From the IMG/VR virus record IMGVR_UViG_3300045988_001675, positions 1-5,714 of that record: 5,714 nt of DNA; one strand, given 5' to 3'. The position numbers and the translations under genes are program-made. Source of the stretch: a virus. The notes under the pieces are model-generated. The model was not told where the DNA came from. It made no database searches and was given only the letters and a program-made list of their open reading frames with translations. Below are positions 1 through 5,714 of the stretch, in pieces (positions within the stretch are counted from its first letter, which is position 1; the number at the start of each line of letters is the position of its first letter).

Positions 1-55
1 TCAACGGAGCGATAACAGAAGAAGCAGAAGTAAGCGTAACACCAAATTACGCAGA
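1..55. repeat. Left copy of an exact 55-nt terminal duplication (identical to 5660..5714); a circular-contig overlap, not a biological repeat
   Basis: Direct comparison: tcaacggagcgataacagaagaagcagaagtaagcgtaacaccaaattacgcaga is present at both ends. It lies inside the capsid reading frame. Confidence 0.95.
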
Positions 56-2812: not shown

Positions 2813-2830
2813 AAGTGTCATGGTGTCACT

Positions 2831-2864
2831 TAGCCCAGTACCTATCAAGTAAGGTACTGGGCTA
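2831..2864 (+). terminator. 13-bp perfect hairpin 19 nt after the Rep stop; candidate terminator or structural element
   Basis: tagcccagtacct (2831-2843) pairs with aggtactgggcta (2852-2864) around the 8-nt loop atcaagta. The following sequence tattagatt is only moderately T-rich, so terminator function is uncertain. Confidence 0.4.
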
Positions 2865-2923
2865 TATTAGATTAAAAGCTCCATGTATCGCTTTATCCAG
2901 TCTATCAAATAGCTATACCTTAT

Positions 2924-2966
2924 CGCGTGTGCACACGCGCACGAAACGCGCACGCGTGCACGCGCG
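2924..2966. repeat. GC-rich imperfect inverted repeat made of two 20-nt perfectly alternating pyrimidine-purine tracts separated by aaa
   Basis: cgcgtgtgcacacgcgcacg (2924-2943) and cgcgcacgcgtgcacgcgcg (2947-2966) can pair over 20 positions: 16 Watson-Crick pairs, 1 G-T and 3 mismatches. The region contains nested perfect palindromes gcgtgtgcacacgc, gcacgcgtgc and gcgtgcacgc. Its composition contrasts sharply with the A-rich remainder of the genome. Confidence 0.75.
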
Positions 2967-3043
2967 GCCTTTTCGGCGCTATAGTTCGCAAGCTCACAAG
3001 CGCCGTATATTATATAAGTTGTTGTAGCCGTAGTAGTAGGAAT

Positions 3044-3218
3044 TGTGGAAAAGTTGATAAGTACTAAAATTTAACGTTAAAACGTAAATAAAAAAGAAAA
3101 AACCATGTTGAAAGTTTTGTTAAAAACTTGTTGAAATGTTAAAAGTTAGTCAAAATGACGAAAAACATTATGCAACATTTTGTGGAAAACCTGTTGAAAC
3201 TGTTGAAACTGTTGAAAA
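3044..3218 (+). repeat. Iteron-like array of about 10 same-orientation TGTTGAAA-type motifs, ending in a 3x tandem 9-mer (ctgttgaaa, 3191-3217)
   Basis: Exact tgttgaaa occurs at 3106, 3129, 3192, 3201 and 3210. The variant tgttaaaa occurs at 3118 and 3137, tgtggaaa at 3044 and 3181, and gttgataa at 3053. All copies are on the + strand in an AT-rich stretch that has no ribosome-binding sites. Confidence 0.8.
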
Positions 3219-3314
3219 CGCGCACGCGCGCAAGGAGTGGATTTAGCCGAGCTCCGCATACGCTACGCACGGCAAGGCGCTAAAGCGCCATTCAAACCAA
3301 AGGAAAAATAAAGC

Positions 3315-3343
3315 TTGACAAAACCAAAAAGGGATAATATAAT
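3315..3343 (+). promoter_or_regulatory. Consensus sigma70-type promoter for the peptidase/late gene block
   Basis: TTGACA (3315-3320), a 17-nt spacer and TATAAT (3338-3343) match the consensus at both hexamers with optimal spacing. This is followed by SD aggag (3364-3368) and ATG at 3377. Confidence 0.8.
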
Positions 3344-3376
3344 CAAAACAGCATAAGACAGAAAGGAGAAAACAGA

Positions 3377-3766
3377 ATGATTACAAGTTACATCGTAGAC
3401 ACAGACGGAAACGAAAAACTTGCAAGACACTTTAAGGTAAAAGAATTTGCTTGCAAAGACGGAAGTCCAATTGTATTCATTGATAACCATCTATACACCA
3501 TTCTAGACATCCTAAGACACGAGCTAGGAAAACCGATCATCATCACCAGCGGATACAGAACGCCAGAGTGGAACGCAAAATGCGGAGGAGCAAAATACAG
3601 CTACCATATGCGCGGTATGGCTGCAGACATCCGAGTCAATGGCATGAGCGCAAAAGCGCTTGCAAACAAACTAAATGAAATTGTACCGGATGAATGCGGA
3701 ATTATCGTATACAATGGCTGGGTGCACTTTGATGTGCGCAAAAGCAAATACAGAAAGGGGGTTTAA
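3377..3766 (+). CDS. Zinc D,D-/L,D-peptidase of the M15 (LAS / Peptidase_M15A-like) family; putative cell-wall hydrolase (endolysin-like)
   Basis: This 129-aa ORF has a strong SD. The motif order is typical of phage/bacterial M15 peptidases: FKVKEFACKDG ... LGKPIIITSGYRTPEWNAKCGGAKYSYHMRGMAAD ... GWVHFDVR. That gives the H-x6-D ... H zinc triad (H77, D84, H117, plus D119). There is no signal peptide or TM segment. Confidence 0.85.
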   Translation: MITSYIVDTDGNEKLARHFKVKEFACKDGSPIVFIDNHLYTILDILRHELGKPIIITSGYRTPEWNAKCGGAKYSYHMRGMAADIRVNGMSAKALANKLNEIVPDECGIIVYNGWVHFDVRKSKYRKGV

Positions 3767-3888: not shown

Positions 3889-4113
3889 ATGATGAAATCA
3901 TGGAATGTACGAGACCAGACCAAAGAAGATCTTGAAGAACTTTTAAAACGCAAAAATAAGGAGATAGACGGCAACTTCATAATGCTGAAAAAAATCTCAA
4001 ACATCAACGATACAAAGAAGCTGCTAGAAGAAATCTGGTACATGAAGAGATTTGCAAATGCAATTGAAATGGAACTAATCAGAAGGGAATACAGAAATGG
4101 CAAAACATCGTAA
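3889..4113 (+). CDS. Hypothetical protein (74 aa), charged and helical/coiled-coil-like
   Basis: The ORF is on the ORF track and on the same strand as all phage genes. Only a weak purine-rich SD (gaaagaag) is present. The sequence MMKSWNVRDQTKEDLEELLKRKNKEIDG... is lysine/glutamate-rich with no TM segment and no motif I recognise. Confidence 0.55.
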   Translation: MMKSWNVRDQTKEDLEELLKRKNKEIDGNFIMLKKISNINDTKKLLEEIWYMKRFANAIEMELIRREYRNGKTS

Positions 4114-4236: not shown

Positions 4237-4476
4237 ATGGGACACAACTACTACGGAATCTGGGATAACGTGGCAAAGTGCTACGCATGGGTAGGCGAAA
4301 GCAAGAACAACGCCACCTTTGCACGTATGTGCAACGTGATGGCAAAAGACGAAAAGACCTTCATCGGGCAGAGTCCGCAGGACTACACCGGCTTTAAGCT
4401 GGCAGTCTTCGAAGACGAAATCGGCACGTTCACGAACGACACAGAGAAGGTATGGGAGGGCAAGCCGAATGAATAA
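4237..4476 (+). CDS. VP5-like non-structural protein (79 aa), putative role in ssDNA synthesis/packaging
   Basis: SD aaggag sits 7 nt upstream of the ATG. The pattern YGIWDNVAKCY...NNATFARMC...SPQDYTGFKLAVFEDEIGTF resembles the conserved layout of gokushovirus VP5 proteins (x-D-x-K-A-x-x-Y ... A-x-R-x-F ... P-E-D-(F/Y) ... G-x-F-D-x-x-x-G). The assignment is from memory of the family, not from a search. Confidence 0.6.
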   Translation: MGHNYYGIWDNVAKCYAWVGESKNNATFARMCNVMAKDEKTFIGQSPQDYTGFKLAVFEDEIGTFTNDTEKVWEGKPNE

Positions 4477-4879
4477 ACGATACGAAGAAGGGCGAAAGCC
4501 CTTCTTTTCAAATCCGGGCGAAAAAGAACAGAAACAATACGTCTGGGCAAAAGACGAAAACGGGAAAGAGTACCTTCAGGAAACAGAACCTATCGACATT
4601 CAAGCCGAAATCGAAAGCTATGCAGACGAGTGCGATATAAAAAGCATCGTACGAAAAGCAAGTTTCGACCCGGAATTTCTAAAAAGTCTGTCACAAGGCG
4701 CATTAACCACAGAAGAAACGCCACTCGTGGACATCACGGAATTTCCGCAGAATATCCACGAATACCATCAAATGATTGCAACGGCACAGGCAAATGCCAT
4801 TAAACTGGCAAAACAACAGGAAATGGCAAAAGCAGAGCCTGAGCAGAAAACCGAAGTAAAGGAGGAAAAGAAAGAATGA
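4469..4879 (+). CDS. VP3: Internal scaffolding protein (gokushovirus VP3-like), 136 aa
   Basis: It sits immediately upstream of the capsid gene and is translationally coupled to it (ATGA at 4876-4879). It overlaps the preceding ORF by 8 nt. It is an acidic, helical protein with a K/E-rich C-terminal tail, of size and character typical of VP3 scaffolds. Motif-level recognition is moderate only. Confidence 0.7.
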   Translation: MNKRYEEGRKPFFSNPGEKEQKQYVWAKDENGKEYLQETEPIDIQAEIESYADECDIKSIVRKASFDPEFLKSLSQGALTTEETPLVDITEFPQNIHEYHQMIATAQANAIKLAKQQEMAKAEPEQKTEVKEEKKE

Positions 4880-5714
4880 ACAGAAACAACGAAAGGCACT
4901 TTCTGAACGTACCACAGATGCACACCAGCAGAACACGTTTCAATCGTGACCAAACGATTCTTACCACGTTCGACAGCGGAGCACTAATTCCATTCTTTGT
5001 AGACGAAGTATTACCGGGCGACACCTTCCAAGTGAATACAAGTGCTATCATCCGTATGAGTACGCCAAAATATCCGGTTATGGATGACGCATTCATTGAC
5101 TTCTACTATTTCTACTGTCCAAACAGGATCATCTGGGATGACTTCAAAAAGTTCATGGGAGAAGCAGATGAAACGCCTTGGGAACCCAACAAGACGTATA
5201 AAGTGCCACAAATCCAGCTTGGAACCGGAGAAAAAGACGGATTAGCACAACCGTACGAAGGAAGCGTGCTTGACTATATGGGAGTGCCTACAAAAAGCAT
5301 ACCATCCGGAACTAAAGCGGAAAAAGTCAACGCACTGCCGGTAAGAGCATATGTAAAAATCTGGAATGAATATTTCAGGGATCAAAACGTAGACAATCCG
5401 GCAACGCTGAGAACGAACAGCGAGGACATCGATTACGGTGACCGTGCCGACAGCACGAGCTTAGAATTGGGCTGGGCAACAGCATACAGCGGTGGCAGAT
5501 GCCTACCGGTAAACAAATTCCACGACTATTTCACAAGCTGTTTGCCATATCCACAGCGAGGACCGGAAATTAAATTGCCGATATCAGGAAATGCAGCAGT
5601 AAGAGGATATAAAGACTTGAATTACAAAAATGTAATCCAAGCAAACGTCATACCCGTAATCAACGGAGCGATAACAGAAGAAGCAGAAGTAAGCGTAACA
5701 CCAAATTACGCAGA
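4876..5714 (+). CDS. VP1: Major capsid protein (Microviridae VP1 / F-family), N-terminal part; 3'-partial in the window and continues at 1..872
   Basis: ATG at 4876 is preceded by aggagg (4860-4865). No stop occurs before the window end, which is why it is absent from the ORF track. The translation MNRNNERHFLNVPQMHTSRTRFNRDQTILTTFDSGALIPFFVDEVLPGDTFQVNTSAIIRMSTPKYPVMDDAFIDFYYFYCPNRIIWDDF...ALPVRAYVKIWNEYFRDQNV... is an unmistakable microvirus capsid N-terminus. Confidence 0.95.
   Translation, partial: MNRNNERHFLNVPQMHTSRTRFNRDQTILTTFDSGALIPFFVDEVLPGDTFQVNTSAIIRMSTPKYPVMDDAFIDFYYFYCPNRIIWDDFKKFMGEADETPWEPNKTYKVPQIQLGTGEKDGLAQPYEGSVLDYMGVPTKSIPSGTKAEKVNALPVRAYVKIWNEYFRDQNVDNPATLRTNSEDIDYGDRADSTSLELGWATAYSGGRCLPVNKFHDYFTSCLPYPQRGPEIKLPISGNAAVRGYKDLNYKNVIQANVIPVINGAITEEAEVSVTPNYA
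5660..5714. repeat. Right copy of the exact 55-nt terminal duplication (identical to 1..55)
   Basis: A base-by-base match to 1..55. The capsid reading frame is preserved through the junction. Confidence 0.95.

Follow-up and report, generated by a model that had tools for sequence, protein, structure and literature searches.

A dense array of short direct repeats lies between the genes for VP4 and the M15 endolysin of a microvirus recovered as IMG/VR record IMGVR_UViG_3300045988_001675 (5,714 nt; this whole stretch is called the window). The nearest records are gokushoviruses of the human and pig gut (e.g., KX513868, ∼80% identity over 86% of the genome). The TGTTGAAA repeats are probably variant DnaA boxes of the likely bacterial hosts and, together with DnaA-trios, a G cluster and an AT-only stretch, would constitute a copy of the basal unwinding system (BUS) of chromosomal replication origins, to be opened by the DnaA protein of the host. 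The layout of these motifs is conserved over divergent gokushoviruses and is identical to the layout in the dnaA–dnaN spacer of host genomes. Microviridae are a textbook case of rolling-circle replication, in which a phage nickase acts at one short site. The full-text literature (subscription journals partly covered) yielded no paper linking Microviridae or gokushoviruses to DnaA boxes, DnaA-trios or oriC-like elements, which agrees with a preliminary description of the window, made from its letters alone, that had called such arrays undescribed in this family; a search on TTTTCAACA returned unrelated primer sequences only. What appears to be new is the presence of a BUS-type DnaA module, itself known, in an unexpected rolling-circle phage with single-stranded DNA (ssDNA), with boxes in one direction and a phage-specific addition.

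A repeat array far beyond chance

Five exact copies of TGTTGAAA (3106, 3129, 3192, 3201 and 3210), all on the + strand, were found as previously described, and no further exact copy occurs elsewhere in the window, on either strand. Shuffling the genome 200 times with preservation of dinucleotides gave a mean of 0.28 and a maximum of 3 copies, and in no case (0/200) five. The five additional copies with one mismatch that had been claimed amount to four within 3044–3218 (3044, 3118, 3137 and 3181); the fifth was probably AGTTGATA at 3052–3059, which has two mismatches. The array comprises nine copies at no more than one mismatch, or ten if AGTTGATA is counted. Its last three copies are indeed phased at 9 nt, forming a perfect 3.0-copy tandem of the 9-mer CTGTTGAAA (3191–3217), and the surroundings are AT-rich (GC 0.28 for 3001–3200). 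The degenerate motif TGTKGAWA is present in seven same-strand copies within 175 nt, whereas the largest cluster was two in 1000 Markov-1 genome simulations and three in 5000 simulations with the local AT-rich composition. The array is therefore genuine, and its copy number greatly exceeds random expectation.

A coding repeat was rejected: spacings of 8, 11, 12 and 23 nt disrupt every reading frame, one frame of TGTTGAAA reads TGA, and no Pfam or PHROG family is matched by the small open reading frames (ORFs; 36 and 42 aa) that overlap the array. Neither a known RNA family nor a tRNA was found in the region; the tRNA search gave no hit, and Rfam at E ≤ 1 only one sub-threshold match at 1843–1911, outside the region.

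The preliminary description had offered stacked weak promoters, or a sink for a sigma factor or RNA polymerase, as an alternative function. Such a sink made of −35-like elements, or binding by another host regulator such as Spo0A, whose 0A box is TGNCGAA, is extremely improbable. Each copy does contain TTGAAA, and TGTTGAA is one base off TGTCGAA, but TGNCGAA shows no enrichment (3.0 matches expected, 2 observed, only one of them in the module), on which ground Spo0A boxes were rejected. The promoter scan found neither a −10 partner nor a promoter-like site within the array, the nearest −35/−10 pairs to 3044–3218 being at 2985–3013 (9/12) and 3315–3343 (12/12). In addition, the position adjacent to the trios at host oriC, described below, is that of DnaA boxes 6 and 7.

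The array is part of a BUS-like module

The array is the box part of a module of ∼210 nt (3006–3218; Table 1), in which an AT-rich stretch, (TAG)n trios, a G cluster, a double box and two more box clusters follow each other. The AT-only stretch, a candidate DNA-unwinding element (DUE), has its counterpart in “ttatataTaA” of the relatives’ consensus and in an AT-rich run at the same place in host origins. At its junction with the trios (3016–3027), most relatives have ACTTGTTGTAG where the window has AGTTGTTGTAG; TTGTTGTAG (3019–3027) occurs once in the window and was found in 82 of 83 modules of microviruses, whereas the modules of hosts and large phages that were compared have neither TTGTTGTAG nor ACTTGTTGTAG. 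(TAG)3 is likewise found at a single place in the genome (3031). Between trios and boxes, the window retains only one G where relatives and hosts have GGG or GGGG. The double box consists, in module order, of TGTGGAAAA and then (A)GTTGATAA, both in the same orientation; the reverse complement of 3044–3052, TTTTCCACA, fits the relaxed DnaA-box consensus TTWTNCACA, and, after the trios, the pair “GTGGAAAAGTTGAAAAC” recurs in relatives, host origins (L090, L218 and L219) and large phages. Start-to-start spacings are 12, 11 and 8 nt in cluster II and 11, 9 and 9 nt in cluster III, which includes the perfect threefold tandem 9-mer; the columns of both clusters are conserved in an alignment of 14 loci.

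On both sides, the module is bordered by GC-rich DNA. The left flank (2921–2975) is predicted to form a stable hairpin in the folded + strand, and two related loci (L008 and L012) have similar flanks. A 17-nt direct repeat, AAACGCGCACGCG(T/C)GCA, stands at both module edges (2944–2960 and 3216–3232); the right copy is 94% identical to the left one and 85% complementary to 2950–2962 (pair I4). The bracketing flanks look like the boundary of a cassette, or like clamps that would confine unwinding.

In the published search rule, a BUS has a box with no more than two mismatches from TTATCCACA, a spacer of up to 16 bp (∼4 bp on average) and at least three NAN trios, preferably 3′-GAT-5′ (PMC8287927), and its definition includes a tandem pair of co-oriented boxes (PMC8287927, PMC10721633). 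The complementary strand of the window has the order TTATCAAC-TTTTCCACA-ATTC-CTA-CTA-CTA-...-AT-rich. The box TTTTCCACA has one mismatch and lies 4 nt from the trios; TAG TAG TAG (3031–3039), with a further TAG at 3025, shares its strand with the TGTGGAAAA boxes and is oriented as in the host spacers; and TGTGGAAAA is followed, as its tandem partner, by AGTTGATAA, a host-type box that differs from the E. coli consensus at two positions. The GC cluster, GGG or GGGG in relatives and hosts, is weak in the window (GAAT), and the AT-only 12-mer at 3006–3017 takes the place of the DUE. B. subtilis requires a proximal pair of boxes in fixed orientation as well as distal boxes (PMC6669920), to which the double box and the two clusters (3106–3145 and 3181–3218) correspond. 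A BUS-like pattern occurred in none of 1000 simulated genomes. The chromosomal context, next to dnaA and dnaN, is lacking, as the module lies between VP4 and the M15 endolysin; it is a mimic or capture of part of a chromosomal origin, not a chromosomal origin.

Conservation among gokushoviruses and occurrence in large phages

When the intergenic region alone was used as a blastn query, 50 GenBank phage records were matched, many of them over 3006–3219 only and at 72–87% identity, despite the fact that VP4 is just ∼45–55% identical. Scanning IMG/VR with two stringent BUS patterns returned 73 microvirus-sized contigs. Conserved modules are found in ∼50 gokushoviruses from GenBank and at least 73 from IMG/VR, the VP4 proteins of which are 45–95% identical to that of the window. 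The preliminary description had staked its reading on the number and orientation of the motif in relatives; all 14 loci fetched carry 3–8 exact TGTTGAAA, on one strand. The consensus of their alignment is TATAATATATAACTTGTTGTAG-nAG-TAGTAGTAGG-GAn-TGTGGAAAAGTTGAAAAC ... four boxes ... TTGTGCAAC-TTTTGTGGAAAACC followed by three boxes, and its invariant columns are the trios and the boxes. At homologous box positions, TGTTGAAAA, TGTGGAAAA and TGTGGATAA replace each other, the last being the reverse complement of the perfect DnaA box TTATCCACA. Modules contain ∼7.6 boxes, mostly spaced 8, 9, 11 or 12 nt from start to start, which would suit a head-to-tail protein array. No module is present in the cultured gokushoviruses phiMH2K, Chp2 and SpV4, which rules it out as a general feature of this group.

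Orientation was checked for the 61 IMG/VR contigs of the first scan. In all of them (61/61), the module follows shortly after VP4 and is on the gene strand, as it is in 12 of 14 GenBank genomes; in the other two, KT264784 (L008, 901–1107) and KT264801 (L012, 901–1100), the whole module is inverted relative to VP4, VP2 and M15. Both are metagenome assemblies, and the GC-rich, near-palindromic flanks could either mediate inversion or confuse the assembly.

The nearly constant strand bears on the main rival explanation, namely that the same DnaA module serves as a complementary-strand origin on ssDNA, where DnaA bound to the TAG trios of the packaged or displaced + strand would load helicase and primase similarly to the ABC primosome. 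We consider this unlikely, although the TAG (DnaA-binding) strand is gene-sense in the proportions just given, DnaA-dependent priming on ssDNA has an in vitro precedent in the ABC primosome at the M13 A-site (PMC6127211), and the module is mostly unstructured in the folded + strand and flanked by strong hairpins. Both the ABC primosome and the BUS filament require a double-stranded DnaA box as platform, but the boxes of the window all point in the same direction and none is part of a stable predicted stem. The centroid fold of 2813–3376 leaves the array essentially unpaired; it contains no hairpin box of the A-site type, and a double-stranded box formed within the folded ssDNA was rejected on this basis. 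The two inverted modules also argue against a role tied to one strand, and that the packaged strand of this clade is the gene strand is itself an assumption, adopted from characterised Microviridae.

Beyond the microviruses, three related viral contigs of ∼140 kb and one of 23.6 kb carry, in intergenic positions, AT-rich-(TAG)3–4-GTCG-(T/A)GTTGAAAAGTTGAAAAC followed by boxes in both orientations (Table 1). The ∼140-kb contig examined (L176) appears to belong to a large double-stranded DNA phage, as judged from nearby genes for RNA ligase, dCMP deaminase and a GyrB-like topoisomerase (topoisomerase II); a phosphoesterase is a further neighbor. No VP4, VP2 or VP1 was found by tblastn in the large-phage contigs.

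The same layout at host origins

One genome per species, covering 185,579 bacterial and archaeal species, was scanned for three closely spaced TGTTGAAA, which returned at least 120 loci; many of these are unrelated tandem repeats of fixed period. Among the matches listed, 11 loci have the array between dnaA and dnaN, all of them in Oscillospiraceae, Ruminococcus, Eubacteriales or Clostridia metagenome-assembled genomes (tblastn; for L031, dnaA and dnaN were confirmed by Pfam). On the strand opposite dnaA, most of the 11 spacers read AT-rich, (TAG)3–5, GGG(G), TGTTGAAAcTGTTGAAAa and then further box clusters, and the perfect E. coli box is nearly absent from them. Because these loci had been found through the motif, a motif-free retest was made with six DnaA relatives (61–85% identical) taken from a protein search, the contigs of which were fetched. 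Their dnaA–dnaN spacers contain 28 exact copies in 3.4 kb, whereas ∼35 kb of DNA around them has 4; a perfect TTATCCACA is absent from the spacers. The arrangement of trios and double box is clearest in L216, L218 and L219 (e.g., [TAG]5-GGGCG-GTGGAAAAGTTTAC) and degenerate in L217, L220 and L221. Homology of phage and host oriC through a prophage or integration was rejected, as none of VP1, VP2 and VP4 matched and blastn similarity extends over at most ∼117 nt, mostly 23–50 nt, and stems from the repeated boxes.

The DnaA proteins encoded at these loci differ from that of B. subtilis in domain IV: all 17 have RDHST(I/V/M) instead of RDHTTV, extended to RDHST(I/V)VY in 15. In E. coli numbering, the changes are T435S and H439 to Y or T, with P423 being variable, and the residues concerned are among those listed as contacting bases (PMC7561715). 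These exchanges fit the altered box TTTTCAACA. Origins of Oscillospiraceae and Ruminococcus appear to use boxes of the TTTTCAACA type and almost never TTATCCACA, a pairing of variant box and initiator of which no description was found; it would point to a variant DnaA box, with matching substitutions in the base contacts of DnaA, in a major family of gut bacteria.

The preliminary description had taken the array for binding sites of an initiator or regulator, comparable to plasmid iterons or the Rep-binding repeats of HUH replicons, with VP4 as a candidate. The general idea of directly repeated binding sites for a replication initiator is supported, whereas the iteron, Rep and VP4 part is not, the same 8-mer with the same neighbors being present at host dnaA–dnaN. 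Iterons should be private to their replicon; since the motif is shared with host chromosomes and ∼140-kb phages, the bound protein would most likely be host DnaA, and replicon-specific repeats of the plasmid or HUH Rep type do not seem to be at hand. Iterons for a phage protein (VP4, or a small one such as VP5 or the 74-aa product) are therefore very improbable, although nearly all genomes have the module shortly after VP4, the microvirus-specific ACTTGTTGTAG adjoins the trios, and the PHROG family matched by VP5 has a DNA-binding annotation. Motif and layout are the same at host oriC and in large phages in which none of VP4, VP2 and VP1 was detected, and Chp2 and phiMH2K possess VP4 and VP5 according to their annotations but no array.

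Proposed mechanism and its weighing

If the module is a BUS, its site of action would be the double-stranded replicative form. Host DnaA would bind the co-oriented boxes, with the double box (3044–3060) as the nucleation site and clusters II and III as distal boxes, and ATP-DnaA would oligomerise from the double box along the TAG trios of the + strand. The resulting filament would melt the AT-rich stretch at 3006–3017, and the opened DNA may then allow host helicase loading and priming to start synthesis (theta-like or of the lagging strand), expose ssDNA to the rolling-circle initiator and nickase VP4, or both. DnaA binding, unwinding and a gain for the phage are what the layout of the motifs leads us to expect.

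Several points weigh against opening by host DnaA. Microviruses already own a complete rolling-circle system, and the module is not essential to the family, because the three cultured gokushoviruses named above lack it. Binding of DnaA to TTTTCAACA is deduced from the places where this motif occurs, and at the conserved C6 the motif does not agree with TTWTNCACA, the relaxed consensus. The probable hosts, Oscillospiraceae or Ruminococcus, are assigned by motif matching only, and a prophage search (tblastn of VP1, VP2 and VP4 against 120 host loci) gave no match. The constancy of the gene strand, finally, could mean a role specific to ssDNA, or common descent.

The boxes might instead act as a sink or sensor. 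DnaA is titrated by the datA locus, and many copies of the replicative form with ∼10 boxes each could similarly withdraw DnaA and shut down host initiation, or DnaA occupancy could tune phage transcription. The dense, co-oriented boxes and the perfect sigma-70 promoter ∼100 nt downstream would agree with this, but the promoter is not overlapped by boxes, and trios, G cluster and AT-rich element, superfluous for titration or regulation, are among the most conserved columns and stand in the exact register of a BUS. We regard a sink or sensor as rather improbable.

Besides the BUS-like module, the intergenic region contains features that may belong to the phage’s own origin. Directly after the VP4 stop codon (2831–2864), there is a perfect hairpin of 12–13 bp with the loop TATCAAGTAA, which recurs at 38 of 80 related microvirus loci, with an identical loop in 33 of the 38 and covarying stems. 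ACTTGAT, which forms the core of CAACTTG|ATATT, the origin of phiX174, is found in the complement of the loop, TTACTTGATA. This hairpin is a candidate nick or recognition site of VP4, and the junction block ACTTGTTGTAG could be where VP4 acts on DNA melted by DnaA. In KT264801, the hairpin is still on the gene strand despite the inversion of the module. A similar hairpin of Chp2 also shows ACTTGAT in its loop, though there on the gene strand; the strand in the window is puzzling. In the intergenic region of Chp2 (L201, 2816–2945), which has no trios, two TGTGCAAAA 9-mers that fit the relaxed DnaA-box consensus are placed 12 nt apart, and phased A-tract repeats separate them from the hairpin with ACTTGAT.

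Hairpin and junction block motivate the reading of the region as a hybrid origin, which we put forward tentatively: DnaA would melt the junction of the AT-rich stretch and ACTTGTTGTAG for cleavage by the HUH nickase VP4, or would start theta-type, plasmid-like replication of the replicative form. In that case, a clade of gut microviruses would be dependent on, and licensed by, the cell-cycle initiator of the host, perhaps in a carrier state, and the module would be a host tag for Oscillospiraceae readable from sequence.

Opening of the module by host DnaA, if true, would add a host-initiator-dependent step to the rolling-circle picture of Microviridae, in more than 100 gut gokushovirus genomes, and would offer a testable handle on the replication and persistence of uncultured, very abundant gut phages. 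It would also allow hosts (Oscillospiraceae/Ruminococcus) to be predicted from sequence in a clade for which the retrieved records name none. The same mimicry in unrelated phages of ∼140 kb suggests a wider phage strategy.

Genome organization

The terminal 55 nt are identical at both ends of the window (1–55 = 5660–5714, exact), which shows that it represents a circular genome of 5,659 nt; every gene is on the + strand (Table 1). A perfect sigma-70 consensus promoter, TTGACA-17 nt-TATAAT, at 3315–3343 is the only strong promoter in the scan; it is followed by the ribosome-binding site GGAG and the start of the M15 endolysin gene. This promoter together with GGAG fits a host of the Firmicutes type rather than Bacteroidota. 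Between VP1 and VP2 (883–903), a strong terminator-like hairpin, AGCCCGGG-TTTTG-CCCGGGCT, precedes a T-rich tail.

Table 1. Elements of the module, genes of the phage, and corresponding loci in large viral contigs and probable hosts.
Feature	Position	Strand	Remarks
Left flank, GC-rich alternating purine/pyrimidine near-palindromes	2921–2975		Contains 17-nt repeat AAACGCGCACGCGTGCA (2944–2960); families D2, D5; inverted pairs I1, I4, I7, I11
AT-only stretch TATATTATATAA, candidate DUE	3006–3017	+	Across the trios from the boxes; read from sequence
Junction block TTGTTGTAG (DUE/trios), microvirus-specific	3019–3027	+	Invariant in the 14-locus alignment
DnaA-trio run TAG-CCG-TAG-TAG-TAG	3025–3039	+	Three perfect trios nearest the box; 5′-TAG-3′ = 3′-GAT-5′
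Spacer GAAT, trios to first box	3040–3043	+	4 nt; G cluster (GGG or GGGG) here in relatives and hosts
Double box	3044–3060	+	TGTGGAAAA (3044–3052) sharing one base with AGTTGATAA (3052–3060)
Box cluster II, four co-oriented 9-mers	3106–3145	+	TGTTGAAAG 3106, TGTTAAAAA 3118, TGTTGAAAT 3129, TGTTAAAAG 3137
Box cluster III	3181–3218	+	TGTGGAAAA 3181, TGTTGAAAC 3192, TGTTGAAAC 3201, TGTTGAAAA 3210
Right-flank copy of the 17-nt repeat, AAACGCGCACGCGCGCA	3216–3232		Overlaps last three bases of the final box; family D5
VP1	4876 across junction to 872	+
VP2	912–1796	+
VP4, replication initiator	1793–2812	+
Intergenic region	2813–3376		564 nt; holds the module
M15 endolysin	3377–3766	+
74-aa ORF	3889–4113	+
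VP5	4237–4476	+	Matches PHROG family annotated DNA-binding
VP3, scaffold	4469–4879	+
Large-contig module, L176	2301–2560
Large-contig module, L190	3906–4170
Large-contig module, L194	∼930–1211	−
Large-contig module, L154	2053–2313
Host loci (17), motif-found			L031, L037, L042, L054, L055, L068, L084, L087, L090, L098, L117
Host loci (17), DnaA-found			L216–L221

Comparison with known systems

The module shares order, orientation and spacing of its elements, and also the distal boxes, with the BUS as known from B. subtilis incC (Richardson/Pelliciari/Murray), and the trio strand of C. difficile, CACCTACTACTATTACTACTATGA, resembles its trios. The likeness is close at the level of sequence for the origins of Oscillospiraceae (host L090, AGTAGTAGTAGTAGGGAGCCGGAAAAAGTTGAAAAG; phage consensus, GTAGTAGTAGGGAnTGTGGAAAAGTTGAAAAC). 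Unlike a chromosomal BUS, it is located in a rolling-circle ssDNA phage of 5.66 kb rather than in a dnaA–dnaN spacer, all its boxes face in one direction, whereas host origins have mixed box orientations, and it has the block ACTTGTTGTAG and the GC-rich palindromic flanks in addition.

As to phage and plasmid origins, the array shares its intergenic region with candidate features of a VP4 origin (the hairpin at 2831–2864 and ACTTGTTGTAG), which is reminiscent of phiX174, where, in contrast, the origin is a single site of 30 nt inside gene A and has no repeats. Plasmid iterons differ in being private to the replicon, the phage motif being common to host chromosomes. The origins of plasmids and phage-plasmids such as P1 oriR, F, pSC101 and RK2 carry DnaA boxes, and here the likeness would be that a mobile replicon recruits host DnaA via boxes beside the origin of its own initiator; those origins have one to few boxes plus Rep iterons and replicate in theta mode, whereas no iterons were seen in the phage and its initiator is an HUH nickase. 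To our knowledge, no complete BUS including trios has been reported for origins of this type. The A-site of the ABC primosome is, as related in PMC6127211 after Masai & Arai, a single DnaA box made double-stranded by a hairpin in ssDNA. It would resemble the module in a DnaA-dependent loading of helicase and primase on single-stranded phage DNA, and differs from it in that the phage has ∼10 unpaired boxes on the same strand, together with trios, and no predicted stem containing a box.

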